In this document: positions 29,432 through 44,107 of the stretch, piece by piece
Numbering within the stretch: position 1 is the stretch's first letter
How the letters are laid out: the number at the start of each line of letters is the position of its first letter
From: an uncultured Acidimicrobiia bacterium
Lineage (GTDB): Bacteria > Actinomycetota > Acidimicrobiia > Spongiisociales > JAENVV01
DNA: 61,729 bases
Assembly (NCBI GenBank): GCA_964600365.1
Contig: CAZRJG010000006.1
Coordinates: 1 to 61,729, forward strand
Direction of reading: 5' to 3'
Notes under the pieces: model-generated
The model's database searches: none
What the model saw: only the letters and a program-made list of their open reading frames with translations
What the model was told of the DNA's origin: nothing
Translations under genes and position numbers: made by a program

Positions 29432-30839
29432 TGCGCCGACTCCTCGTAGCCCTCGTCGTGGTGGCTGCGGGGTGCACGGCTGGTGCACCGACCGGCACCG
29501 AGGCCCTTCCAAGTACCACGGCACCTCCTCCCTCGGTCACCCTCACGGAGTCGACGATCGACTGGCGCACCCACTCCTACGAGCTCACTCCCTTCAACAC
29601 GGTCACCAACGTGGACCCGACCACGCTCGTCGACGTGGAGTTCGCCACCTGGGTCCTCGAAAACGAGCACCTCTCGGCGACGCTCCTGCCCGAGTTCGGG
29701 GGCCGGATCATCTCCCTCATCTCCAAGGACACCGGACGAGAGCAGCTGTACCGATCTCCCGTGGGGGTGCCGTACCAGGTAGGGACCGGGGTGTTCTTCT
29801 TCGACTGGCTCATGGTGTACGGCGGGATCTTTCCCACCTTTCCGGCGCCCGAACACGGCAAGGCGTGGTTCGTGCCGTGGTCGTTCCAGGTCGTCGAGGA
29901 GGCACCCGACTCCATCACCGTCGCGATGTCGTTCACCGACACCGAGGACTACCCGCTCTCCCCTCCCCGCTACGACGGGCGGGCAACGGGGCTCTCCGTC
30001 AGATGGATCCTCACCCTCGAATCGGGTCGGTCTGCGATCGACACCGAGGTGGTCATCGCCAACCCCGGCGACGTCCCCGTCCGGTTCGAGTACTGGACGA
30101 ACGCCACCCTCGCCCCCGGGGCGGCCCCCCTCACGCCGGTGGCATCCGCCGCGACCGAGATCGTGGCACCCATCGCGTTCGTGAAGATCCCGTCCTACTG
30201 GACTGCCATCGCAGCCAGCGAGCAACGCACCGGAGTCGCGGAGGTCCACGAGTTCGATCGGCTCCGCAGGTTCGGTGGGTGGGACGACCTCGGCATCGCC
30301 TACGCATGGCCCGACGTCCGCGGTGGACGCGCCTGGGGCGCCATCAACCGGGAGAACGGCGACGGGATCATCCGGATCGGCGACAACGCCATCACGCCCG
30401 GGTTGAAGATGTGGACCTGGGGCTACGAGCGCTCCCTGCGCCGCTATCCCCCGAGGCCGGGCCCTACGTGGAGTTGTGGGCCGGGCTCACCCGGGAGTTC
30501 TTCACGAGCACCACGATCGATCCCCTTTCCGAGATCCGGTTCCCGGAGGCCTGGGCGGTCACGTCCGGGCTCGAAGGAGTGACCGACGCCGACGGGCACT
30601 TCGTGGTCGACGCTCGGATCACCGATGATGCGATCGAACTCACCGCCGCTGCGTTGGGAGGCGCCACCGAGGCGACGCTCACCGCCTCCGACGCCGCCGG
30701 ACCGCTCGGAGACGTGGCCGCCGAGATCGGACGCTATGCCACGCGGGTCACGATCCCCCTCGATCGACCACCCGACGGACCGATCGAGGTCGTCCTCACC
30801 CGACCGGACGGATCCTCCCGCTTCATCCTGTCGCCATGA
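29431..30839 (+). pseudogene. DUF5107-like lipoprotein, frameshifted near 30430-30465
   Basis: Lipobox AAGC; LENEHL..TLLPEFGGRI; KMWTWG in one frame continues as PYVELWAG in another frame. Confidence 0.7.
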
Positions 30840-30886
30840 GGCGGGCGCCTCCCCGGGGAGGTACATTTACCCGGAGGAGGAACCAG

Positions 30887-32587
30887 ATGCCGTCCAACAG
30901 GGTCGCGCTGAACGCCGACGTCGTCGGGTACAGCGCGCTCATCTCCGACGACCTCGCAGCCATGACCGAGACCATGCGCACCTTCCATGCGCTCGTCGAG
31001 ACAGAGGTCGTCGCACGGGGAGGAACCCTTGCGAACTTCGTCGGCGACCAGTTCATGGCCCTGTTCGACGACGCCATCGATGCCCTCGGCGCGGCCATCA
31101 CGATCACCAAGGCGGTCGAGGAGCACAACGCCACCCTGCCGGTCGAGCGCTGGGCCCGATTCCGCATGGGCCTCGACGTCGGGCCGGTCGAGGCGACATC
31201 GAGCGGCTACCACGGCGACGCCCTCAACATCGCCGCTCGGGTCCAGGCAATCGCCCCGGCGGGAGGGATCTCGGTCTCCGGGCGGGTCTACCAGGCGATC
31301 GACGAACCGGAGTTGCGCTTCCGGGCGGTCGGCAGGAAGCGAATGAAGAACATCCCCGAGGACGTGGAGGTGTACGAGTTCGTGGACCTCCCCGCCAGTG
31401 GGACGGGCGGGAGCCGGAGTTCCCTCGACCTCGACAACCCCACGGTTGCGATCCTCCCCATCCACACCGACCACGTGGATGACACCGTCCGTTCCGGGGC
31501 CGAGGTCTTGCGGGCTGATCTCGTCCACCGACTCTCACGTGTCCCACAGCTCACGATCATCGACGCACAGACGGCGAGCGGCACCCGGGCGCCTGACCTC
31601 AACGCCCGATACATGCTCGAAACCGGGGTCCACCAGTTCGGCGAGAGCGTGCGCATGTTCGCCACCCTCTTCGACGTCGGGACGATCAACGTCGTGAAGT
31701 CGCACAAGTGGACGGCGACGATCGGTGACCTCGTCGCCACGTCCGACGAGATCGCTGACGAGGTCGCGCGATCCCTCGAAGTCGACCTCATCATCGGTGA
31801 ACCAGCCCAGCTCTACGCGAAGTTGGAGGATCCACGGGCGATCGAGCAGATCTACTTGGGGTGGTACCACTTCCGATCCGACGTCCCCGAGGAGTGGGCC
31901 AAATCCGTGGAGCTGTTCGAGGCCGTGCATCGCTCTCACCCCGAACTCCCGTACGGCGCAGTCCTCAAGGCCTACGCACTCTGGATGGGCACGACCAACG
32001 GCTGGACCCCCGATCCGGATGCGGCACTCGACGAAGCCCATGAACTCGCCGTGTGGGCCCGGGATCTGGGCGATCCCACAGGGATGAGCAAGGCGCTCGA
32101 GGCCGCGGTCGCCATGTCCCGCGGTGACAACGACGCCGCCCTCGCCGCCCTCGAAGGACTCTCCGAGGTACGACCCACGTGCGACGTGACCTACGCCTTG
32201 GAGGGATCGGTACGGCGGTACCTCGGCGACTGGGAGAGGGCCGTCGAGGCGTGCGACGTCGCCATGCGGCTCACCGGACTCAACAAGCCGTGGTACCCGA
32301 CCGTGAAGGCTGCCTCCCTCTTCGTCGGGGGTAAGACGAACGAAGCGGCGATCCTCGCCCAAGGGGTGCTCGAGCACCAGCCGCACAACCTCGAGGCCCT
32401 GCTCGTCCTCGCAGCCGCCCAGGTGGAACTCGGCCTCGAACGACGAGCCGCCGGGACCGTCGACGCCATCCGCGAACGCTTCCCGTCCGTCGACGTCGAG
32501 GACTGGCTCGACAAGACGCCCTATCAGCGGCGCGAGGTGGTCGATCGATGGAAGGACGACCTGGCGACCGCCGGCGCGATCACCTGA
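30887..32587 (+). CDS. Class III adenylate/guanylate cyclase with TolB-like and TPR domains
   Basis: GGAGGAGG RBS; ADVVGYS, GD.FMA.F and GDALNIAAR motifs; P.VAILP; TPR helices. Confidence 0.85.
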   Translation: MPSNRVALNADVVGYSALISDDLAAMTETMRTFHALVETEVVARGGTLANFVGDQFMALFDDAIDALGAAITITKAVEEHNATLPVERWARFRMGLDVGPVEATSSGYHGDALNIAARVQAIAPAGGISVSGRVYQAIDEPELRFRAVGRKRMKNIPEDVEVYEFVDLPASGTGGSRSSLDLDNPTVAILPIHTDHVDDTVRSGAEVLRADLVHRLSRVPQLTIIDAQTASGTRAPDLNARYMLETGVHQFGESVRMFATLFDVGTINVVKSHKWTATIGDLVATSDEIADEVARSLEVDLIIGEPAQLYAKLEDPRAIEQIYLGWYHFRSDVPEEWAKSVELFEAVHRSHPELPYGAVLKAYALWMGTTNGWTPDPDAALDEAHELAVWARDLGDPTGMSKALEAAVAMSRGDNDAALAALEGLSEVRPTCDVTYALEGSVRRYLGDWERAVEACDVAMRLTGLNKPWYPTVKAASLFVGGKTNEAAILAQGVLEHQPHNLEALLVLAAAQVELGLERRAAGTVDAIRERFPSVDVEDWLDKTPYQRREVVDRWKDDLATAGAIT

Positions 32588-33453: not shown

Positions 33454-34296
33454 ATGTACGACATCGCCCTGACAGTCCAGTCCTGCCTGCGAGCAGGTAC
33501 CACCGTCCATGTGGCGTGGATCGTGGACGGGGAGACACCCCCCACCGAGGCCGTGGCGATCACCCCCGGGGGTGGACGCATCGGCACACTCCGCGGCGGC
33601 GCCTTCGACGTCGACCTTCCTGACCTCGTCTCACGAGTCGGTGACACGGGAGGGGTGATCGACCTCGAGGTGGGCCCGCTCGCGGCCATGGTCGGGGACC
33701 TCGAGCAGGGGACCATCGTTCGGATCGCGATCGCCCCCGGGGCGCTGCTCCCGGCGGGTTCATGGGAGGCGATCGTCGAACGCCGACCTTTCGCCTTCTC
33801 GATTGGTCTCGATCGCGATCGGTTCACCGATGCTGGCCCGGCCTCACCGACAGGGAACCGATCGACGATGGTCGACGGCCGCCTCGAGGTCTCCCTCTCC
33901 CCCACCTCGAAGGTGGTCATCGCCGGAGGAGGGCCCATTGCCGAGGCGATCGCCGCAGCCTTCGGATTCGTGGGCTGGGAGGCCGATGTGGTGCCCGAGG
34001 TGAGCGCCGCGACGGGGATCATGGCGACGCTCTCGTCATCAGACGCCATCGTCGTGATGGGTCACGACATCGAGATATCCGGACGCGCACTCGAAGCGGC
34101 GGTCCGCTCGAGAGCGGGGTACATCGGCTCACTTGGCGGCCAACGGATGCAGGAGATGCGTCGGGAGTGGATCACGTACCGGGGAGCAGCCTGGGACGAC
34201 CGAGTGCACGGTCCCGCCGGGATCGACATCGGTGCCGAATCAGCTCCCGAGATCGCCATCTCCGTCGTCGCCGAGGCCATCCGTTCGCTGCACTGA
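33454..34296 (+). CDS. XdhC/CoxF-family Moco maturation protein
   Basis: GGAGGAG RBS; GYIGSLG and HGPAGIDIGAES.PEIAISVVAE motifs. Confidence 0.85.
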   Translation: MYDIALTVQSCLRAGTTVHVAWIVDGETPPTEAVAITPGGGRIGTLRGGAFDVDLPDLVSRVGDTGGVIDLEVGPLAAMVGDLEQGTIVRIAIAPGALLPAGSWEAIVERRPFAFSIGLDRDRFTDAGPASPTGNRSTMVDGRLEVSLSPTSKVVIAGGGPIAEAIAAAFGFVGWEADVVPEVSAATGIMATLSSSDAIVVMGHDIEISGRALEAAVRSRAGYIGSLGGQRMQEMRREWITYRGAAWDDRVHGPAGIDIGAESAPEIAISVVAEAIRSLH

Positions 34297-34359
34297 TCGG
34301 GCGCCTGCCAAGCGGATTGGAGGTCACCACTGCTACATTCACCACACGGACTGCACGAC

Positions 34360-34602
34360 ATGAACGACTCCTTCCCGACGCCAACCACCGCAATGTGGTC
34401 TGCCCCCTCCGACGAGCAGACGCTGGCCGATGCCGAGTGCAGCCCGACGAAGACCTGCCGCAACATGGTCGGCATCTCATTCGACGGGTTCGCCGACCAG
34501 GGCGGGGACATCCGGGACGCCTGGAAAGCGACACTCGCTGCCGAGGGGAAGCTCGGAAGCGGCTCCATCGCGGATCTCGTCCTGGGCGACGCGGGCTCCT
34601 GA
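34360..34602 (+). CDS. Small hypothetical protein (80 aa)
   Basis: High GC3 codon usage; sits between the xdhC-like gene and coxD on the same strand. Confidence 0.55.
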   Translation: MNDSFPTPTTAMWSAPSDEQTLADAECSPTKTCRNMVGISFDGFADQGGDIRDAWKATLAAEGKLGSGSIADLVLGDAGS

Positions 34603-34619
34603 GCCCCGGTCCTACCGCT

Positions 34620-35501
34620 GTGCCATCCCCCCTCCCCGAGGACGTCGCAGAACTCGACGCCCTCCTCAGGAGAGAGGGCTACCTCTCCGATCGGGGCCTC
34701 ACCACGGCCACCTTCATCGCCATTTCGCTCGGACGCCCCCTCCTGCTCGAGGGTGAGGTGGGCGTCGGCAAGACCGAGCTCGCCAAGACCCTCGCGTCGA
34801 TCTTCGGACGTCGGCTCATCCGCCTCCAGTGCTACGAGGGTATCGACACCTCGCAGGCGTTGTACGAGTGGGACTACGCCCGGCAGATGCTTCAGATCCG
34901 CGCCCTGTCGGAGGCCGATGCAACCGACGAGCACGCGGTTGACGCGCTTTTCGGCGAGAAGTTCCTCCTTGAGCGGCCGCTCCTCGAAGCCGTGCGGGCG
35001 GGCGGCAACTGCGTGCTCCTCATCGACGAGGTGGACCGGGCCGACGACGAGTTCGAGGCGTTCCTCCTCGAGCTGCTCTCCGACTTCCAGGTGACGATCC
35101 CCGAGGTCGGCACGATCAAGGCGACATCACGCCCTCTCGTCGTGCTCACCTCGAATCGGACGCGGGAACTCCACGACGCCCTCAAGCGACGCTGCCTCTA
35201 CCACTGGATCGACTACCCGACCTCGGAGCGGGAGGAGGAGATCGTCCGCACGCGCATTCCGGACGTGCCCGAGACGCTCGCCGTCAAGGTCGTTGAAGCC
35301 GTGCACCGGCTTCGGGGACTCGAACTCGCGAAGCCGCCCGGCGTCGCCGAGACACTCGACTGGGTGCAGGCCTTGCGCACCATCGGCGCCGGGGAACTCG
35401 ACGAGGAGACGTTCTTCGACACGCTCGGTTCAGTCGTGAAGGACCGCGACGACTTCGACGTCGTGGAAAGGCGTGCCGGGAGCATCGTCGGTGGAGGCTG
35501 A
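34620..35501 (+). CDS. coxD: MoxR-type AAA+ ATPase CoxD
   Basis: LLEGEVGVGKT, LIRLQCYEG, LLIDEVDRAD and TSNRTRELHDALKRRC motifs. Confidence 0.88.
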   Translation: MPSPLPEDVAELDALLRREGYLSDRGLTTATFIAISLGRPLLLEGEVGVGKTELAKTLASIFGRRLIRLQCYEGIDTSQALYEWDYARQMLQIRALSEADATDEHAVDALFGEKFLLERPLLEAVRAGGNCVLLIDEVDRADDEFEAFLLELLSDFQVTIPEVGTIKATSRPLVVLTSNRTRELHDALKRRCLYHWIDYPTSEREEEIVRTRIPDVPETLAVKVVEAVHRLRGLELAKPPGVAETLDWVQALRTIGAGELDEETFFDTLGSVVKDRDDFDVVERRAGSIVGGG

Positions 35502-36621
35502 CCGGGGGCTCCTCGGCACCCTCCTCGACTTCTGCGCGACCCTCCGCGACCACGGGCTCCGGGTCGGTACCGACGACGCCCTCACCTTCTCCACCGCAGC
35601 AGCCCTCCTCGACCCGAGCCGCCTCGAGGACCTCTACTGGGCCGGCCGAGCGACGCTCGCCCGCAGTCGGGAGCACATCGGGGTGTACAACGAGGTCTTC
35701 GCCCGATACTTCTTGGGAGGAACCCCCGACCGCGAGCCTGAGGAGTGGAAGGTCCCTGCGCCCGCCCGAGGCTCCGAAGCCATCTTCGACGTTCCCTCTG
35801 GCGAGAGACCCGAGGAGGGCGACGACGAGCAGGGGGCCCGCCTCGGCACCGTCGCGGCCGCAGTGATCGTGGACCACACGAAGTCGTTCTCGGAATGCAC
35901 CGAAGAGGAACTGGAGCAGCTCCGCAGGCTCATCGCCACCCTCCGGGTCACGCCACCCCTCAGGAGGACCCGGCGCCAGCGGTCGGCACCGGCAGGGCGG
36001 CGGCTGGACATGCGACGGATCGCCCGCGAGACGATGAGGGCCCATGGCGAGCCGGGAGACCTGTGGTGGCGCCACCGAAAGGAACGTCCCCGGCCGCTCG
36101 TGCTCATCCTCGATGTCTCGGGCTCGATGGCCGACTACTCACGCAACCTCCTCCAGTTCGCCCATAGCACCACGCGGGCCACAGGGCGCGTCGAGGTGTT
36201 CTGTTTCGGTACGACGCTCACCCGTATCACGCCGGCACTTCGCCGGAGGGATCCCGACGAGGCGCTGGAACAAGCCGGGGAGGAGGTCCGGGACTGGGCC
36301 GGCGGGACATTCATCGGCGCAGCGCTCGACGAGTTCGTCCGACGCCATGCCAGGAGGGGCATGGCACGGGGCGCGATCGTGGTGATCTGCTCCGACGGCC
36401 TCGATCGGGGCGACCCGGCCCTCCTCGACGCCGCCCTCGAACGGCTTGGGCGCCTCAGCCATCGCATCGTGTGGATGAACCCGCTCAAGGGTGACCAGGA
36501 GCCGTTCGCGCCAGCGAGCCTCGGGATGTCGGTGGCAATGCCCCACGTCGACCTCATATGGTCCGGGCACAACTTCGCCAGCCTGCAGGAGTTCGCCGGA
36601 GCGCTCCCGAGGATCCGATAG
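35491..36621 (+). CDS. coxE: VWA-domain protein CoxE
   Basis: DVSGSM MIDAS motif, F.FGT.LTRIT, W.GGT.IG, SDGLDRG and WMNPL. Confidence 0.88.
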   Translation: MEADRGLLGTLLDFCATLRDHGLRVGTDDALTFSTAAALLDPSRLEDLYWAGRATLARSREHIGVYNEVFARYFLGGTPDREPEEWKVPAPARGSEAIFDVPSGERPEEGDDEQGARLGTVAAAVIVDHTKSFSECTEEELEQLRRLIATLRVTPPLRRTRRQRSAPAGRRLDMRRIARETMRAHGEPGDLWWRHRKERPRPLVLILDVSGSMADYSRNLLQFAHSTTRATGRVEVFCFGTTLTRITPALRRRDPDEALEQAGEEVRDWAGGTFIGAALDEFVRRHARRGMARGAIVVICSDGLDRGDPALLDAALERLGRLSHRIVWMNPLKGDQEPFAPASLGMSVAMPHVDLIWSGHNFASLQEFAGALPRIR

Positions 36622-36633
36622 GAGACACAGACG

Positions 36634-36912
36634 ATGAGATGGAGCATCTCACTTCGCGCCGACGGCGATCGGGTCATGGAACTTGCCGAGATCGTCGCGC
36701 TCGCCGACGCAGTGGCCGCCCACGACGGGATTGCGAGCGGGATGGGAACGATGAGCTACGCGGCGCAGATCGTCGTGGAGGCTCCGACCTCCGATGAGGC
36801 CGTAGACAAGGCGATCCCACTCTTCAGGGAAGCCGCAACGACGGCAAGTCTCCCTGACTGGCCCGTCGCCTGGGCCGAGTCCATCGCCGACGAAGAGGAC
36901 CTCTTCGAATGA
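36634..36912 (+). CDS. Hypothetical protein (92 aa)
   Basis: AGGAG RBS; ATGA overlap with the next gene. Confidence 0.7.
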   Translation: MRWSISLRADGDRVMELAEIVALADAVAAHDGIASGMGTMSYAAQIVVEAPTSDEAVDKAIPLFREAATTASLPDWPVAWAESIADEEDLFE

Positions 36913-37340
36913 TCCGGCTGGGCACATTGGGTGGCTACCCGTTCGAGGGACCACGCGTGCTCGGTGGTTTCCAACCGCCGGCAAACCCGGGGATCTTCGC
37001 CATCTTCGCCCGCACCGATCCAGACTCCCGGCAGTTCGAGGTGATCTACCTCGGCCATGCCGAGGACCTCTCCGAGGTGGGCCTCCCGTTCGGCCACCAC
37101 CTCGCCGATCGTTGGATCGAGCGGGCAGGCGGGAAGTGGCACCTGCACATCGCCACATACGTGATCCCTGGCGGGCTGCCGAGTCATCGACAACGCATCA
37201 CCGAGGAGCTCATCGCCACGTACCACCCATCCTGCAACCCGGAGCAGTTCGATCGGGCGTGGAAGGAGGAGTGGATCGGCTCGTACGAGGCGCCCACCAC
37301 GAAGCCGCTCACCACCCGCCGCGACGCTCCACCGTCGTAG
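36909..37340 (+). CDS. Hypothetical protein with GIY-YIG-like motifs
   Basis: PGIFAI...IYLGHAEDL and a late E.LI..Y.P.CN motif. Confidence 0.65.
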   Translation: MIRLGTLGGYPFEGPRVLGGFQPPANPGIFAIFARTDPDSRQFEVIYLGHAEDLSEVGLPFGHHLADRWIERAGGKWHLHIATYVIPGGLPSHRQRITEELIATYHPSCNPEQFDRAWKEEWIGSYEAPTTKPLTTRRDAPPS

Positions 37341-37393: not shown

Positions 37394-37753
37394 CTACTCC
37401 GGCTCGTACCCCACGGCCTCCATCAACCGCGAGCGGCGGGTGCCCATGGCCGGCCGCGCGACGCCGCTCGCCACGTGGGCGTCGTGGTCGAACGTGGCGC
37501 CCTTGACGATTCCCTCGGCCATCCCGTAGAGGAGGGGGAGCGCACCGGCGATCACGCGGCCGGTGTTGTTGATGCTCCCGAGGCCCGAGTCGATCACCTC
37601 GGCGTTCGTCTTGATCTCCCCGACGAGGTCGGAGCACTCCTCGAGGAGTCCCGCGACCCGGGTGAGCTGGCCACCCACGATGTACAAGTAGACCGCCAGT
37701 CCCGCAATGAGCAGGACGATGTCGACGACGGTGAAGAGGACCATGCCGTTCAT
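37394..37753 (-). CDS. Small single-TM helical protein (cox-associated, 5 of 5)
   Basis: N-terminal TM then amphipathic helix; ATGA overlap with the upstream gene. Confidence 0.75.
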   Translation of the reverse strand: MNGMVLFTVVDIVLLIAGLAVYLYIVGGQLTRVAGLLEECSDLVGEIKTNAEVIDSGLGSINNTGRVIAGALPLLYGMAEGIVKGATFDHDAHVASGVARPAMGTRRSRLMEAVGYEPE

Positions 37754-38031
37754 GAGCGCACCTTCTCGAGTACACGGCCGAGGAAGAGGTGGTGCTCGAG
37801 GCCCTCGGTGAGGACCGCGTCGACCCGCTTGGCCGTCTCACGGATGAGCGCCGTGTCGTTGGTGTTCGCAACGGCCTGTTCGAGGGTGGCCCTGATCGTC
37901 GTCACCCGTCGTTCGATCGTCCGTACGAGGACCACGAGGATGGTGAGCAGGGCCGCCACGGCGACCACGACCACGAGGCCGGCCCAATTGGCGAACTGCC
38001 AGAGCTGCTCGGTGGTGTATCCGTCGAGCAT
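37750..38031 (-). CDS. Small single-TM helical protein (cox-associated, 4 of 5)
   Basis: TM then LEQAVANT helix; ATG 1 nt after the previous stop. Confidence 0.75.
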   Translation of the reverse strand: MLDGYTTEQLWQFANWAGLVVVVAVAALLTILVVLVRTIERRVTTIRATLEQAVANTNDTALIRETAKRVDAVLTEGLEHHLFLGRVLEKVRS

Positions 38032-38032
38032 G

Positions 38033-38293
38033 TCAGCCCCCCAGGCGCTTCCTGCCGCGGTTGAGGCCATCGACGATGGCCTCCGCGGACTCGATGGTGG
38101 TGGCCAGCCCTGCAAGGCCGGCCGTGTTGGTCACGGCCTTCTCCAAGCCGGCGTTCACAGCGACCGCTTGGGTGCCGATGCGCTTGGCGAGGAGCAGGAT
38201 CGGGACGACGAGGGCGACAACGACGAGCACCACGACGATGCCGATCGTGTACCCCACGACCCAACCGGTGTTGGCGAGTGTGAACAGTGTCAT
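38033..38293 (-). CDS. Small single-TM helical protein (cox-associated, 3 of 5)
   Basis: AGGGG RBS; TM then LEKAVTNT helix. Confidence 0.75.
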   Translation of the reverse strand: MTLFTLANTGWVVGYTIGIVVVLVVVALVVPILLLAKRIGTQAVAVNAGLEKAVTNTAGLAGLATTIESAEAIVDGLNRGRKRLGG

Positions 38294-38303
38294 GCCGATC
38301 CCC

Positions 38304-38531
38304 CTAGATGCCCTCTGCGAACTCACGCACCGGCGCGAGCATCCCGTTCACCGCGTCGACCGTAGAAGGGACCGGATCGGTCTTCTCGACGATCACGTCG
38401 ACCCCGCCGATGAGCGCGTCGAGCGTCCGGACGACGGCCACGAGGTGGCCGATGACTCGGATGAGCCCGAGCGCCGCGGCACCGATGATGAGGCCCGCGA
38501 GGACCAAGGTGACGATTGCGACGTTCTCCAT
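38304..38531 (-). CDS. Small single-TM helical protein (cox-associated, 2 of 5)
   Basis: AAGGAGG RBS; TM then amphipathic helix. Confidence 0.75.
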   Translation of the reverse strand: MENVAIVTLVLAGLIIGAAALGLIRVIGHLVAVVRTLDALIGGVDVIVEKTDPVPSTVDAVNGMLAPVREFAEGI

Positions 38532-38541
38532 TGGTCCTCCT

Positions 38542-38796
38542 TCAGCCCAACAGCTTCGCGACGGAGCCTGCGTACCGGACGGCGCCGTTGGCGACCTCCG
38601 AGATCACCCCGCCGGTCACGGCGAGGCGGTCGGGGACCGATTCGACCTCGCCGATCACCCCGACTCCCCCGGCGAGCGTGGTGTCGGCGGCCCCCCGGAT
38701 CCGCTCCAGTGCGGCGAGCACCCTGTTGAGGAGCGCCACCAGCACCGGCACGATCACCAGCAGGAGGACGAGGTTTCCGATTGCCCAGAGCGACAT
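38542..38796 (-). CDS. Small single-TM helical protein (cox-associated, 1 of 5)
   Basis: GAGGAGG RBS right after the coxG stop; TM then amphipathic helix. Confidence 0.75.
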   Translation of the reverse strand: MSLWAIGNLVLLLVIVPVLVALLNRVLAALERIRGAADTTLAGGVGVIGEVESVPDRLAVTGGVISEVANGAVRYAGSVAKLLG

Positions 38797-38806
38797 GCGT
38801 ACCTCC

Positions 38807-39388
38807 TCAGTCCGTCGCAGGCTTGTAGGGAAGGAAGAAGCGGCGGGCGACCCGGGCAAGGGCCATCCACACCGCCCTGAGGCCGATGGCGAGCCCGCTC
38901 GCCTGCGAGGAAGCGCCGGGGGTGAACTCGACGCCCCTCTCGAGCGCTGCAAGCTGTCCCTTCATGTTCGCCGCGAACTCGTCGAGTAGCACCTTCGTCA
39001 CGTCCTGCACCATGCCGCGCCCGTACTGGGCGGCGGCTCCCGAGAGCTGCAGGTCCTGGCTCACCACGACCTTCGTGCCGGCACCCGATGGCACGAGACT
39101 CGCATCCACGACGAGGGCCGCCTGGCCACGGCCCTTCACATCGGCACCCGCCGCATCGACGATGATGCGCCGGTTCGCCTCGTCCCGCTCCCGGATTGTC
39201 GCCTGACCTGAGAAGTCGAGCTTCACGGGGCCGAGGCCGATCACCACCGAGCCCGCGTACTCGTCCTCGGAGACCTGCTCGGAGAGGTCCGCTCCCGGTA
39301 GGCAGTTGGCCACGAGTGGGATGTTGTTGAAGAACTCCCACACCCTGTCGGGAGACTCCCCGACGTCGAATTCACTCTTGATCAGCAT
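38807..39388 (-). CDS. coxG: CoxG (SRPBCC/START-fold) CO dehydrogenase accessory protein
   Basis: VW.F......VA.CLPGA, LGPVK..F.G and LSG.AAQYGRGM motifs; basic amphipathic C-terminal helix. Confidence 0.88.
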   Translation of the reverse strand: MLIKSEFDVGESPDRVWEFFNNIPLVANCLPGADLSEQVSEDEYAGSVVIGLGPVKLDFSGQATIRERDEANRRIIVDAAGADVKGRGQAALVVDASLVPSGAGTKVVVSQDLQLSGAAAQYGRGMVQDVTKVLLDEFAANMKGQLAALERGVEFTPGASSQASGLAIGLRAVWMALARVARRFFLPYKPATD

Positions 39389-40319
39389 GGACGCTCCTCG
39401 TGTATGACTCGGGATCGGCTGCGAGGGCCGCCCGGCATCCCGCGCAACAGAAGTAGTAGGTGGTGCCGTCGTGCTCGAACGGGCGGCTCGAATCGTTGGC
39501 AGTGACCTCCATGCCACAGACGGGGTCGATCGCCGTCGCTGGCCGGTCCGAAGGGGCAGCCGCCGACGCGCCGAAGCCGCCTTCTGCGCGCACCCGCACG
39601 AGCTCGGCCAGGATCGAGGCGGCCATCTCCCGGTGCGACGTGTGCCCCAGGTCGATACCTGCTGGCACTCGGACCGCATCGATCCGTGCTTCGGGCGCCC
39701 CGTGCTCACGCAGGTAGCCGAGCACCACCTCACCACGCTTCGCCGATGCCACGAGGCCGACCCAGGCGGGGTCGGCGTCGAGGGCAGCGATGAGCGCGTC
39801 CTCATCGCCGTGACCCTGGGTCGCCACCACCACCGCCGAGCCGACTGGCACTGCATCTGCGGTGATGGTCTCGGTGACTCGCCCGTGCCAGCCGAGCGCC
39901 TCGACGAGATCGATGAGCGTGTGCGCCATGGGTGATCGCCCGACCACCACCACGGTCGGGGTGGGGATGACGGGTTCGATGTGGACTTGGAGGGCACCAT
40001 CGCTCTGGCAGGAGATCGGAACGGACACCATCCCGTCGGGCACCTCCCCCATCACTCCCTCCATGCCGAGGAGGAGGAGCTTGGGCTCGCCGTCCTGCAT
40101 GGCATCGAGGGCTTCGCGGATGAGCACTGGTTCGGCGCACACACCGCCGATCCATCCGTGCACCTGACCGTGCTCGGTGACGATCGCCTTCGACCCGGCC
40201 TTCCCCGACGAAGGCCCCTGTCTCCACACGACGGTGGCGAGGGCGAACCGCTCACCCTTCCGGGAGAGCTCGACGGCCTTCTCGAGGACCGACCATCCAT
40301 CGTGTGCCTCCTCGTGCAT
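39372..40319 (-). CDS. XdhC/CoxF-family protein fused to a C-terminal YHS domain
   Basis: GWIGGVCAEP, SCQSDG, VATQG and LVAS.KR; C-terminal DPVCGM...YYFCCAGC. Confidence 0.85.
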   Translation of the reverse strand: MHEEAHDGWSVLEKAVELSRKGERFALATVVWRQGPSSGKAGSKAIVTEHGQVHGWIGGVCAEPVLIREALDAMQDGEPKLLLLGMEGVMGEVPDGMVSVPISCQSDGALQVHIEPVIPTPTVVVVGRSPMAHTLIDLVEALGWHGRVTETITADAVPVGSAVVVATQGHGDEDALIAALDADPAWVGLVASAKRGEVVLGYLREHGAPEARIDAVRVPAGIDLGHTSHREMAASILAELVRVRAEGGFGASAAAPSDRPATAIDPVCGMEVTANDSSRPFEHDGTTYYFCCAGCRAALAADPESYTRSVHADQE

Positions 40320-42697
40320 CACCCCACCTTGACCGGCGGCGCCCCCGAGACATCGACTCCCTCGGTGAGGGCCTTGTGGACGCGGTCGGGGAGCAACGGC
40401 ATGTCGATGTTGCGCACGCCCGTGTGCTTGACCGCGTCCATCACGGCGTTCACGAACGCCGCGGGACCTGCGACCGTGGCGCACTCCCCCACACCCTTGG
40501 CACCAATGGGATGGTGGGGACAAGGGGTGACGACCTCATGGAGCTCGAAGCCGGGCGTCTCCCATGCGGTCGGGATGAGGTAGTCCATGTAGTTACCGCC
40601 GATGCAGTTGCCCTCCTCGTCGAACGTGATGAACTGCATGCTGGCCTTGGCGTACGCCTCGGTCAGCCCACCCATGATCTGACCCTCCACGATCATCGGA
40701 TTGATCCGCACGCCGCAGTCGTCGACGGCGACGACCCTCAGGACGTCCCACACGCCCGTCGCAGGGTCGACCTCCACGGTCACCGCGTACATGGCAAACG
40801 GCCACGTCAGGTTTGGCGGGTCGTAGTACGCCGTGTTCTCCAACCCCGGCTCCATGCCATCGGGCATGTTGGAGTAGGCGGCCATCGCGCACTCCTGGAT
40901 GGTCACTCCGCGGTCGGGAGCGCCACGCAGGTAGAACCGTCCCAACTCCCACTCGATGTCCTCCTCGGAGGCCTCGAGCAGGTGCGCGGCGATCTTGCGC
41001 GCCTTCGCACGAATCTTTCGGGCGACCATCGAGACCGCAGCCCCGGCAACCGGGGTCGAGCGGGACGCGTATGTCCCCATGCCGAACGGCGCCGTATCGG
41101 TGTCGCCCTCCTCCACGACGATGTCGTCGGCCGGGATACCCAGTTCGTGGGCGACGATCTGCGCCCAGGTGGTCTCATGGCCCTGGCCCTGCGTCTTCGC
41201 CCCGGTGCGGAGGATCGCCTTGCCGGTCATGTGGACCCGCAACTCGGCGGAGTCGAACATCTTGATCCCCAGGATGTCGTACTCCCGGCTGTTGCCGGCA
41301 CCCAACGGCTCGGTCATCGACGAGAAGCCGATGCCAAGGAGTCGGCCCCGCTTGGCGGCCTCCTCCTTCTCCTTGACGAAGTCCTCGTAGCCGATCGCCT
41401 CGAGGGCCACGTCCATGCACTTCCCATACTGACCGGAGTCAGTGAGGAACCCGAAGGCGGTTCGATGGGGGAAGTCGTCGTCACGCACGAAGTTCCTGCG
41501 CCGGAACTCGGCCTGGTCCATTCCCAGGTCGTCGGCAGCGGCTTGCACCATGCGCTCCTGGAAGAACATCGCCTCCGTCACCCTGAAGGAGCACCGGTAG
41601 GCGACGCCGCCCGGAGCCTTGTTGGTGTACACGCCCCTCGCCGTCAGGTGGGCGGCGGGGATGTCGTAGCACGCGAATGCCGAGTGCATGAGACCGATCT
41701 TGAACTTGCTCGGCTGTGCATCGGCGAAGAACGCGCCGTGGTCGGAGAGCGTGTGCATGCGCACCCCGAGGATCTTCCCGTCGTTGCGAAGGGCCATCTC
41801 ACCCTGGAGATACACGTCGCGGCCGAACCCAGTCGAGATGAGGTTGCCCGACTTGTCCTCGATCCACTTCACCGGTCGCTCCAGGAGGATCGACGCAAGG
41901 ATCGAGATCACGTACCCGGGATAGACAGGCACCTTGTTGCCGAACCCACCACCGATGTCCGGCGACACGATGCGAATCATGTGCTCCGGGAGCTCGGCGA
42001 CGAGGGCGACCGCTGCACGGATGATGTGCGGCGCCTGAGTCGTCATGTACACCGTCAGCTTCGACGTCGAGCGATCGAAGTCGGCGATCGACCCGCAGGT
42101 CTCGATCGGGGAGGGGTGCGACCGGGGATAGTGGAGGTCGATCTTCGAGATGACATCCGCCTGCGCGAATGCGGCATCGGTGGCGGACTTGTCACCGACC
42201 TCCCAATCGAACACGACGTTGTTGGGCTGGTTCGCCTTGTCGTCGCGGATGAGTGGGGCGTCCTCAGCAAGTGACTGCTCCGGGTTGACGATCACATCAA
42301 GCGGCTCGTACTCGACCACGATTGCCTCGCAGGCGTCCTTGGCGATGTACGGGTCGTCCGCGATCACGGCGGCGACCTCCTGGCCCTGGTAGCGGACCTT
42401 GTCGGTCGCCAGCACCGCCTGCGTGTCATATGACAGGGTCGGCATCCAGGCGAGGTTGCGGGCGGCCATCGTCTCGCCGGTCAGGACGAGGCGGACGCCG
42501 GGCATGTCCCACGCGGCGGAGGCGTCGATCGACTTGATACGAGCGTGCGCGAGCGGGCTGCGGAGGATCTCCATGTGGAGCATCCCGGGAAGGACGATGT
42601 CGTCGACGTACTGGCCCTTGCCCCTGATGAATCGGGCGTCCTCTACACGACGCCTGCTGGCACCGAGTCCGCCGATCTTGAGTTCGTCGAGAGTCAT
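40319..42697 (-). CDS. coxL: Aerobic CO dehydrogenase large subunit, form I
   Basis: Active-site AYRCSFR; GGGFGNK, QGQGHETT, GTYASRST and HHPIGAKGVGE; MSL gene order. Confidence 0.96.
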   Translation of the reverse strand: MTLDELKIGGLGASRRRVEDARFIRGKGQYVDDIVLPGMLHMEILRSPLAHARIKSIDASAAWDMPGVRLVLTGETMAARNLAWMPTLSYDTQAVLATDKVRYQGQEVAAVIADDPYIAKDACEAIVVEYEPLDVIVNPEQSLAEDAPLIRDDKANQPNNVVFDWEVGDKSATDAAFAQADVISKIDLHYPRSHPSPIETCGSIADFDRSTSKLTVYMTTQAPHIIRAAVALVAELPEHMIRIVSPDIGGGFGNKVPVYPGYVISILASILLERPVKWIEDKSGNLISTGFGRDVYLQGEMALRNDGKILGVRMHTLSDHGAFFADAQPSKFKIGLMHSAFACYDIPAAHLTARGVYTNKAPGGVAYRCSFRVTEAMFFQERMVQAAADDLGMDQAEFRRRNFVRDDDFPHRTAFGFLTDSGQYGKCMDVALEAIGYEDFVKEKEEAAKRGRLLGIGFSSMTEPLGAGNSREYDILGIKMFDSAELRVHMTGKAILRTGAKTQGQGHETTWAQIVAHELGIPADDIVVEEGDTDTAPFGMGTYASRSTPVAGAAVSMVARKIRAKARKIAAHLLEASEEDIEWELGRFYLRGAPDRGVTIQECAMAAYSNMPDGMEPGLENTAYYDPPNLTWPFAMYAVTVEVDPATGVWDVLRVVAVDDCGVRINPMIVEGQIMGGLTEAYAKASMQFITFDEEGNCIGGNYMDYLIPTAWETPGFELHEVVTPCPHHPIGAKGVGECATVAGPAAFVNAVMDAVKHTGVRNIDMPLLPDRVHKALTEGVDVSGAPPVKVG

Positions 42698-43230
42698 CAG
42701 GCCTCCTCTCCTGCCTCGGAGCGGAGCTTCTCGCCCGCCCAGAGGACTGCCTTCACGATGTTCTGATACCCCGTGCATCGACAGAGGTTGCCGGAGAGCG
42801 CCCAGCGGACCTCGTCCTCGGTTGGGTCGGGGTTCCGTTCGAGGAGCGCCTTGGCGGCCATCATCATCCCGGGTGTGCAGAAGCCGCACTGCAAGCCGTG
42901 CTCGTCCTTGAACCCTTCCTGGATCGGATGGAGTTCACTTGGCCCGGCGAGGCCCTCGACCGTCTCGATCGCGTGACCGTCGGCTTGGACGGCGAGCACG
43001 GTACAGCTCTTCACGGGTTCACCATCCATGAGCACGGTGCAGGCCCCACAGTTCGTGGTGTCACAGCCCGTGTGCGTACCGGTGAGTTTGAAGCCCTGGC
43101 GGATCAGATGTGCAAGGAGGAGCCGTGGCTCGACGTCGACCGTCCGACGCTCGCCGTTGAGCGTGACGGTGATCCTCCGAACCGGGACACCGGGGGTCGG
43201 GGTCGAGACTTCTTCGAACAGGCTGGTCAT
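42697..43230 (-). CDS. coxS: CO dehydrogenase small subunit (2x [2Fe-2S])
   Basis: [20 protein letters not shown] and GNLCRCTGY. Confidence 0.95.
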
Positions 43231-43231
43231 G

Positions 43232-44107
43232 TCAGGCCACCTTCTCCATCGACGAGGCCACCCGAGTGAGGAGGCGAGTCACGAACGTGTGGACGATGTG
43301 CCGCTTGTACTCGGCACTCCCGCGGTGGTCGCTCTTCGGCTCGGCGACCGCAGCCGCGGCATCGGCTGCAGCCCCGATGCGATCGGCCGTGAGCGAGCCT
43401 CCGACGAGGGCGTCGGCTGCCCCCCTTGCGTTGATGGTGCGGGAGCCGACCGCCGCAAGGCCGATGCCCGCCCGGGCGACCGTGTCGCCCCTCATATCGA
43501 CGCTCACCGCCACCGATGCGGTGGCGAAGTCACCGACGCGCCGTTCGAGCTTGAGGTACCCGCCCATCGGCGTGCCCTGCGGGGCGGGGGCGATCGCCTC
43601 AACGCCGAGCTCATCGTGGGCGAGCACCGTCTGGAACGGGCCCGTGACCAGGTCGTCGATCGGAATCGTGCGTCGCCCGCCCGGACCCTGGGCGACCAGC
43701 GAACCCCCGAGCGCGGTCATCACTGCGGACCAGTCGCCCTGGGGATCGGCGTGGCAGAGCGACCCGACGAACGTGCCACGGTTGCGGACGCTGGGGTCTG
43801 CAACGAGAGGGGCGGCAGCTGCCATGACCGGCGAGCGGGAGCCGAGCTCAAGGGAGCGTTCGAGCGCGGCGTGGCGTACGAGAGCACCGATTCGGATGGA
43901 ACCGTCGGCGGCGAAGTCGAGGCGGTCGAGGCCCTGGATCGAGTTGATGTCGACGAGCACGGTGGGACCGGCGAAGCGGAGCTTCATCATCGGGAGAAGG
44001 CTCTGCCCTCCGGCGAGCACCTTTGCGTCCGGCCCGGCCTCGGTCAGGATTCCGATGGCCTCGTCGACGGTCGTCGGTGCCTCGTAGCGAAAGCGTGCCG
44101 GGTACAT
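43232..44107 (-). CDS. coxM: CO dehydrogenase medium (FAD) subunit
   Basis: [27 protein letters not shown] and D.RGS.EYK. Confidence 0.95.

Follow-up and report, generated by a model that had tools for sequence, protein, structure and literature searches.

The DNA analysed here, hereafter called the window, is positions 1 to 61,729 of contig CAZRJG010000006.1, forward strand (GenBank assembly GCA_964600365.1), from an uncultured Acidimicrobiia bacterium, and its subject is a cassette of five small genes directly after coxG in an operon for form I molybdenum-copper carbon monoxide dehydrogenase (Mo-CODH, CODH below). By profile comparison the predicted products, S1 to S5, correspond one-to-one, in a permuted order, to the sets of five small transmembrane (TM) proteins of the HylTM1-5 type which are encoded at [NiFe]-hydrogenase loci. 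The reading favoured here, with moderate confidence, is that they are a CODH-linked version of the HylTM module, a hetero-oligomeric membrane scaffold which would tie CODH and CoxG to the quinone pool. A preliminary description of the window had presented the proteins as an undescribed family; on their homology this does not hold, as the family is already described in the form of HylTM1-5 and of the small TM proteins of group 1m hydrogenase clusters. The CODH context of the cassette, next to coxG, appears to be unreported in the searchable literature. In open-access full text no link between HylTM and CODH was found, the accessible text of the 2026 HylTM paper does not contain the name CoxG, and no mention of such genes was found in the open-access full text of the CoxG and CODH literature.

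The five open reading frames lie on the minus strand and encode 84, 75, 86, 93 and 119 amino acids. S1 (38542..38796) was assigned to class A, S2 (38304..38531) to class B2, S3 (38033..38293) to class C1, S4 (37750..38031) to class C2 and S5 (37394..37753) to class B1. The coxG stop is at 38807, and the gaps coxG-S1, S1-S2 and S2-S3 are 10, 10 and 10 nt, that between S3 and S4 is 1 nt, and S4 and S5 overlap (-4 nt). GGAGG-like sites are present 5' of S1, S2 and S3, so that the lengths, the tight packing and the ribosome-binding sites of the first three genes were confirmed as first described. No family of Pfam or NCBIfam was above threshold for any of the five and none matched any Cox family, in agreement with the earlier observation that they resemble no named Cox protein; the ESM Atlas likewise gave no named family. 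From coxG to S5, no promoter or terminator was detected on the strand of the operon, a result that is uninformative in a GC-rich genome. When the five family profiles were compared with one another, S3 and S4 were recognised as paralogs (hhalign, 96.9 %), S2 and S5 appeared weakly related (41.7 %) and S1 stood apart. The proposed origin of the genes by duplication is thus borne out for the first pair and weak for the second.

A single strongly hydrophobic stretch is present near the N-terminus of each protein (maximum Kyte-Doolittle (KD) mean over 19 residues, 2.6-3.5; residues 5-23 in S1), with no lysine or arginine before it and one to four in the 15 residues that follow. Because these residues occur only after the hydrophobic segment, the C-terminal 50-60 residues are placed in the cytoplasm, and S1 to S5 are predicted to be single-pass proteins with the N-terminus outside and the C-terminus inside. 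Their cytoplasmic helices are long and of similar length (51-63 residues). AlphaFold2 monomer predictions from 36-row alignments gave a single continuous helix for S4 (residues 7-92, mean pLDDT 81.2) and for S5 (residues 2-86, mean pLDDT 80.5, tail 52-57), so that the earlier picture of one hydrophobic helix running into a long helix agrees with the hydropathy of all five proteins and with both models. In S4 the residues N56, T57, E76 and H80 are invariant, and the C-terminal tip, EGLEHHLFLGRVL, is strongly conserved, its identity within the CODH type being 0.93. The C-terminal tail of S5, about 30 residues (37394-37495, minus strand), is basic, with the consensus ARPAMGTRRSRL, and on the model is likely disordered. 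It is conserved in cassettes of the window type at CODH loci and was not found in any hydrogenase-linked B1 protein, and it is a candidate for a contact specific to CODH or CoxG. Complex prediction with three of the five chains, S3, S4 and S5, from paired 36-row alignments and without CoxG, gave a score of 0.12, the mark being 0.32, and carries no weight on binding in either direction.

Distant relatives of S5 and S3 in related genomes were found outside cox operons, adjoining the small and large subunit genes of [NiFe]-hydrogenases. For the large subunit at these loci the closest match was 5AA5, a group 1h enzyme of known structure (E 1.5e-156). At six loci of one family (L091-L094, L096 and L097) the genes for the two hydrogenase subunits, small and large, flank exactly five small single-TM genes, an arrangement referred to below as S-TM-L. 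The accessible text of Ortiz et al. describes group 1l [NiFe]-hydrogenases with five interposed proteins, HylTM1-5, for which membrane anchoring is proposed and which were modelled by AlphaFold as tube-like scaffolds anchoring Hyl. Comparison of the window families with the inter-subunit positions by hhalign matched position 1 to S3 (94.4 %, E 8.7e-8), position 2 to S4 (95.1 %, E 3.4e-8), position 4, as found in L091-L093, to S1 (95.4 %, E 1.9e-8; class hidden Markov model (HMM) score 113.9) and position 5 to S2 (93.1 %, E 3.3e-7; class HMM score 104.3). Position 3 gave just 30.6 % with S5 in direct hhalign comparison and was matched by the broader class B1 profile, A4 (E 1.2e-13, position-3 gene of genome G171). 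Class HMMs sorted nearly all cassettes into the order C1-C2-B1-A-B2, of which the window order A-B2-C1-C2-B1 (4-5-1-2-3) is a circular permutation. The two sets have in common that five genes in a row encode short membrane proteins of the single-pass type and that they are linked to a cytoplasm-facing oxidoreductase for an atmospheric trace gas, and for both the proposed role is that of a membrane scaffold toward the quinone pool. They differ in that the HylTM set lies between hylS and hylL whereas that of the window comes after coxG in an operon for form I Mo-CODH, that the window S5 has the additional basic C-terminal tail, and that the distal tips of the window proteins are specific to the CODH type.

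A second group of hydrogenase loci (L011, L012, L071, L073, L075, L080 and L082) has adjacent hydS and hydL genes, proteins of classes A and B2 (80-90 amino acids, one TM segment) and then a DUF1059 gene, with a TPR protein nearby. These features correspond to the pair of small single-TM proteins and the DUF1059 protein described for group 1m [NiFe]-hydrogenase clusters in the accessible part of Ray et al. 2022 (PMC9561532), and the label 1m for these loci rests on the published cluster features, not on a hydrogenase tree of our own. S1 and S2 are homologous to the class A and B2 single-TM proteins of 82-92 amino acids in these clusters. The window cassette differs from them in having no DUF1059 gene directly after the pair, as the S2-S3 gap is just 10 nt, a negative that covers the cassette only. 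The group 1m-like loci also carry a C1-C2-B1 trio beside hydS, usually divergent, which is not mentioned in the accessible text of the cluster description (PMC9561532). As a separate observation, the small DUF1059-like protein after B2, with conserved cysteine and histidine residues, was seen in hydrogenase-linked and not in CODH-linked loci (e.g. L012, 1481-1675; L011, 10986-11171; L071, 2060-2236).

All five genes are under purifying selection, judging from dN/dS ratios of 0.06-0.15 against the closest locus, L014. Homologs of S5 form 4204 clusters at 90 % identity in a large protein collection, those listed being unnamed or hypothetical apart from a few stray automatic names. With S5, 54 related loci were retrieved from metagenome-assembled genomes (MAGs) of Acidimicrobiia, Nanopelagicales and other Actinomycetota; having been retrieved through close similarity to S5, they represent one clade. 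The complete set in identical order was present in 51 of the 54, the remaining three being interrupted by a contig end, and coxG was immediately upstream of the cassette in 50 of the 51. The coxL gene was seen in 41 of the 54 loci, coxE in 49 and coxD in 45. Within this clade the median identity of the small proteins was 65-72 %, compared with 57 % for CoxG and 55 % for CoxE. The 4-nt overlap of S4 and S5 was retained in 51 of 52 loci, and this tight spacing suggests co-translation. In RNA libraries of one study (three runs), contigs of a relative, with 192 differences over about 2.1 kb, span coxG to S5; being 4.5-12 kb long, they may be DNA carry-over. In an RNA library of a second study a 525-nt contig with a depth of about 4 joins coxG, S1 and S2. 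Together these contigs are a weak hint that coxG and the cassette are expressed and co-transcribed in a relative.

The wider distribution was examined in a sample of 401 Actinomycetota genomes, 37 of which contained matches to profile A4; the same profile matched 1311 representative clusters (E <= 0.001) in a library of 1.8 billion proteins. From the 37 genomes, 29 published ones were examined, four unpublished ones and four with weak matches only being set aside. The tallies include the unpublished genomes G077, G106, G146, G177, G204, G293, G322 and G390, and locus L013 is from the unpublished G036; no conclusion depends on them. The cassette was linked to two unrelated trace-gas enzymes. 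It was beside hydrogenase genes in 17 of the 29 genomes, with the structural genes within the stretch examined in 16; in the other, G348, it was beside hyp maturation genes, the large subunit gene being about 11 kb off on the same contig. In 10 of the 29 genomes it was within about 7 kb of form I coxMSL, in two CoxL clades and two layouts, coxMSL-xdhC-coxG-A-B2-C1-C2-B1 in the window clade and (coxG-)C1-C2-B1-A-B2-coxMSL in the other. Four of the 10 genomes belong to the CoxL clade of the window (the window itself and three at 87-89 % CoxL identity), and six to a clade at 55-58 %. In three of these six (L083, L088 and L089) C1-C2-B1-A-B2 is directly upstream of coxM, coxG preceding the cassette in L083, and in the other three the cassette is a few kb from coxMSL. 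The motif AYRCSFR was present in all CODH-linked loci inspected, the only CoxL matches in which it was looked for.

On the hydrogenase side, 57 genomes had a match to the large subunit, HydL, at E <= 1e-100. A full-length HydL at least 53 % identical to the query was present in 19 genomes, and all 19 had class B matches (17 of 17 among published genomes). Where HydL was only 40-46 % identical, and thus canonical 1h-like, class B matches were found in 5 of 38 genomes; the cassette was CODH-linked in three of these and unlinked in one, the fifth genome being unpublished. The window's own genome (92.4 % complete) has no group 1l/1m-like HydL at this threshold with this query, and searches with S5 and S3 gave no second cassette copy. 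With no such HydL and one cassette copy detected, CODH is the only evident partner of the cassette in this genome. Genomes G447 and G245 (L072 and L073) have several hydrogenase large-subunit genes. Two cassette sets share a contig there, one complete (C1-C2-B1-A-B2-DUF1059) and one consisting of a C1-C2-B1 trio, the latter directly adjoining a second large-subunit gene with 42-44 % identity.

A quick maximum-likelihood tree of concatenated C1, C2 and B1 (42 rows, 264 columns) was computed from 42 of 84 trios, 12 of the many near-identical window-type loci being kept in addition to the window. The 13 window-type CODH cassettes fell on one side of a branch with an SH-aLRT support of 100, with an orphan cassette from genome G306 as sister; the second CODH type formed a clade with orphan copies from genome G214 (100), and the six S-TM-L hydrogenase cassettes formed a clade (100) among the other hydrogenase-linked ones. 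In this tree the cassette phylogeny follows the partner enzyme. The tree came from a short search and has no root, and we therefore infer no direction of transfer from it. Along the proteins, identity within the CODH type is highest in the membrane-distal 15-30 residues (0.73-0.93). Between the CODH and hydrogenase types these residues rank among the poorest (0.16-0.39), and the TM segments reach a moderate 0.41-0.45. Docking tips specific for a partner would be expected to show such a pattern.

In the favoured reading each chain would cross the membrane once, with the N-terminus outside, and extend a helix of about 50-60 residues into the cytoplasm. The five different chains would assemble 1:1:1:1:1 into a membrane-rooted helical bundle or tube, the membrane-distal tips of which would provide an enzyme-specific docking surface. 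The assembly may hold the cytoplasmic CoxMSL, or the quinone carrier CoxG, its constant gene neighbour, or both, at the membrane, and electrons from CO would thereby reach menaquinone, with the assembly serving as an anchor only or also as a quinone conduit. A hetero-oligomeric assembly for CODH or CoxG was already proposed in the preliminary description, and this part of the proposal is favoured by the homology to HylTM, the recurrence with two enzymes and the phylogeny that follows the partner. CoxG shuttles menaquinone to CODH, as the accessible literature has it, and the membrane attachment of group 1h hydrogenases is described there as unresolved. HucM of the Huc group 2a hydrogenase is reportedly one homo-oligomeric protein without an N-terminal TM helix. 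The likeness of the cassette to HucM would be one of function only, both being conceivable as helical, membrane-associated stalks linking a cytoplasmic atmospheric-gas oxidase to menaquinone. None of the results lends weight to an MCE-like tunnel, a further comparison in the preliminary description. Going further, and with less than even confidence, the set can be pictured as a modular membrane socket indifferent to the enzyme, with a conserved five-helix TM base and a tube to the quinone pool, and with interchangeable tips which co-evolve with the partner. Such tips would receive group 1l/1m hydrogenases and, through CoxG, form I Mo-CODH, and at the orphan loci perhaps further enzymes.

The known tether of the CODH quinone shuttle is the C-terminal TM helix of Mycobacterium smegmatis CoxG (Kropp et al. 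2025, PMC12202499, accessible text). The window CoxG differs in that it ends in an amphipathic, arginine-bearing helix (ASGLAIGLRAVWMALARVA, KD 1.34) and not in a clear TM helix. A clear C-terminal TM segment (KD 2.4) was found in CoxG of two cassette-free loci from large genomes. The CoxG of L083 (8829-9269) is a bare SRPBCC domain of 146 amino acids without a C-terminal helix, with the cassette directly next to it, a single supportive case for the loss of its own anchor in a cassette-linked CoxG. Across loci, the C-terminal hydrophobicity of CoxG had a median of 1.08 in 52 linked loci and 1.49 in 11 cassette-free ones, with overlapping ranges.

Several observations weigh against a scaffold for CODH. 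A CoxL at least 55 % identical was present in 86 genomes of the sample, and as 76 of these had no cassette nearby, most lineages have a CODH that works without it. Some cassettes are near neither enzyme: three of the four copies in G214 (L084-L086) have acyl-CoA ligase, glycosyltransferase, DoxX, HD-domain, ATP-grasp and lipase genes as neighbours, and the G306 cassette (L068) has PBP, TPR and penicillin amidase genes around it. Within 10 kb of these four complete or partial cassettes, neither cox nor hydrogenase genes were found. In G216 (L069, 2865-3680 and 9258-10724) the distance between a C1-C2-B1 trio and a gene for the RuBisCO large subunit is about 6 kb, and a second class B match is 14-20 kb from hydrogenase genes; the former arrangement fits the association of hydrogenase with RuBisCO reported, in the accessible text, for 'atmospheric chemosynthesis' genomes. 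No cofactor-binding motif was identified in S1-S5. The published role of HylTM is itself a model, as far as the accessible text goes, and the homology references used here were the actinobacterial S-TM-L loci L091-L097 and not the Hymenobacter proteins.

The nearest curated family is DUF948 (PF06103), and the proteins could be generic membrane coiled-coil proteins of this kind, concerned with membrane or envelope organisation or with dormancy, merely co-regulated with the enzymes and standing outside their complexes; we regard this as unlikely. No match of S1-S5 was above the gathering score (37.2 bits), sub-threshold matches being seen in B1 relatives only (6 of 36 class B1 members, best E 1.9e-4), and one cluster member is annotated 'YoxC' by its source. 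All of S1-S5 have the N-terminal TM helix and cytoplasmic coiled coil of such proteins. S5 shares with FacZ of Staphylococcus aureus, which acts in division-site placement (PMC10914604, accessible text), the complete order of TM helix, coiled coil and basic disordered tail, and the copies in unrelated contexts in G214 and G306 also speak for a general function. FacZ, however, is a single gene with a predicted homo-oligomeric product, whereas the window has five co-inherited classes beside redox enzymes. Mere co-regulation also accounts poorly for five genes inserted between hydrogenase small and large subunit genes in six loci, for a cassette which, in two layouts, immediately follows cox structural genes or lies between them, for cassette clades which track the partner enzyme, and for the presence of the cassette in all 19 genomes with one hydrogenase clade. 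A platform at the membrane for assembly or maturation, which would hold the apo-enzyme for insertion of metal and cofactor together with CoxD/CoxE and XdhC factors and remain outside the working enzyme, seems less probable again. The cassette is always among maturation genes, in the window with the xdhC-YHS gene upstream and coxD/coxE convergent, at L074 and L099 with CoxD/CoxE-like genes and at L075 with hypD, hypC and a NifU-like gene. Yet, with unrelated machineries for the maturation of Mo-Cu and of Ni-Fe centres, a common membrane dock is a more economical assumption than a common chaperone platform; a stable partner would suit the conserved, type-specific tips, and most CODH and canonical 1h loci mature their enzymes without the cassette.

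Least probable of all, and very improbable in our judgement, is that the proteins are redox or sensing subunits, binding metal or haem through the invariant histidine and glutamate of class C2 or forming a module for membrane-redox signalling. None of 36 class C2 sequences, drawn from both enzyme types, departs from E76 and H80, and a DUF1059 protein bearing cysteine and histidine follows B2 in hydrogenase-linked loci. The five proteins have, however, a single invariant histidine among them, located in the cytoplasmic helix and not in the membrane, with no cysteine motifs and no match to a cofactor-binding family.

Access of the cytoplasmic high-affinity H2 and CO oxidases to quinone is partly solved, by HucM for Huc and by CoxG for mycobacterial CODH. 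The occurrence of the same module with a hydrogenase clade and with form I CODH, diversifying with the partner, suggests one shared membrane dock for trace-gas enzymes and turns the speculative HylTM scaffold into a hypothesis that is general and can be tested. Acidimicrobiia and Actinomycetota of the Nanopelagicales type may also have in this module a component of CO oxidation that is yet to be studied. If the socket picture were true, abundant freshwater and marine Actinomycetota would couple CO oxidation to respiration via a structure which is absent from the mycobacterial model. In practice, the five genes should be annotated, and any expression, purification or modelling of such CODH or Hyl/Hhm enzymes should include them.

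The remaining genes of the cox locus were assigned with Pfam. On the minus strand, coxG (38807..39388), directly upstream of S1, encodes a lipid or quinone carrier of the SRPBCC type (COXG, E 8.4e-18). It is preceded by a gene for an XdhC/CoxI-like maturation protein with a C-terminal YHS domain (39372..40319, start approximate; XdhC_CoxI, XdhC_C and YHS); this domain, TRASH-like and metal-binding, may be relevant to the delivery of copper to the Mo-Cu site. Further upstream are form I coxL (40319..42700, start approximate; active-site loop VAYRCSFR, motif at 41602), coxS for the [2Fe-2S] subunit (42697..43230; Fer2_2) and coxM for the FAD subunit (43232..44107, start approximate; FAD_binding_5 and CO_deh_flav_C). 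A convergent accessory operon (33500..37340, plus strand) includes an XdhC-like gene, coxD (MoxR AAA), coxE (VWA), o92 and o143. The last two, o92 (36634-36912, plus strand, 92 amino acids) and o143 (36909-37340, plus strand, 143 amino acids), follow coxE and end convergently beside S5. They have no Pfam or NCBIfam family and were present in 49 (o92) and 52 (o143) of the 54 related loci, and they are a further conserved, unnamed part of the CODH locus.

A word-based homolog search with a hydrogenase-linked B1 protein gave 50 clusters, all of unnamed MAG proteins, with no cultured organism in the cluster look-up. Giant proteins of 1410-2716 amino acids, with 8-18 matching stretches, were rejected as compositional coiled-coil matches, generic coiled-coil Pfam families being found in those scanned (P0171, P0195 and P0303). 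P0317, in which a class B N-terminus is fused to HypF-like domains, may be an artefact of gene calling and was left aside. Close to the cox accessory genes, a gene at 30836-32587 (plus strand) encodes a protein of 583 amino acids with an adenylate/guanylate cyclase-like domain and TPR repeats, and TPR proteins recur near hydrogenase-linked cassettes too.

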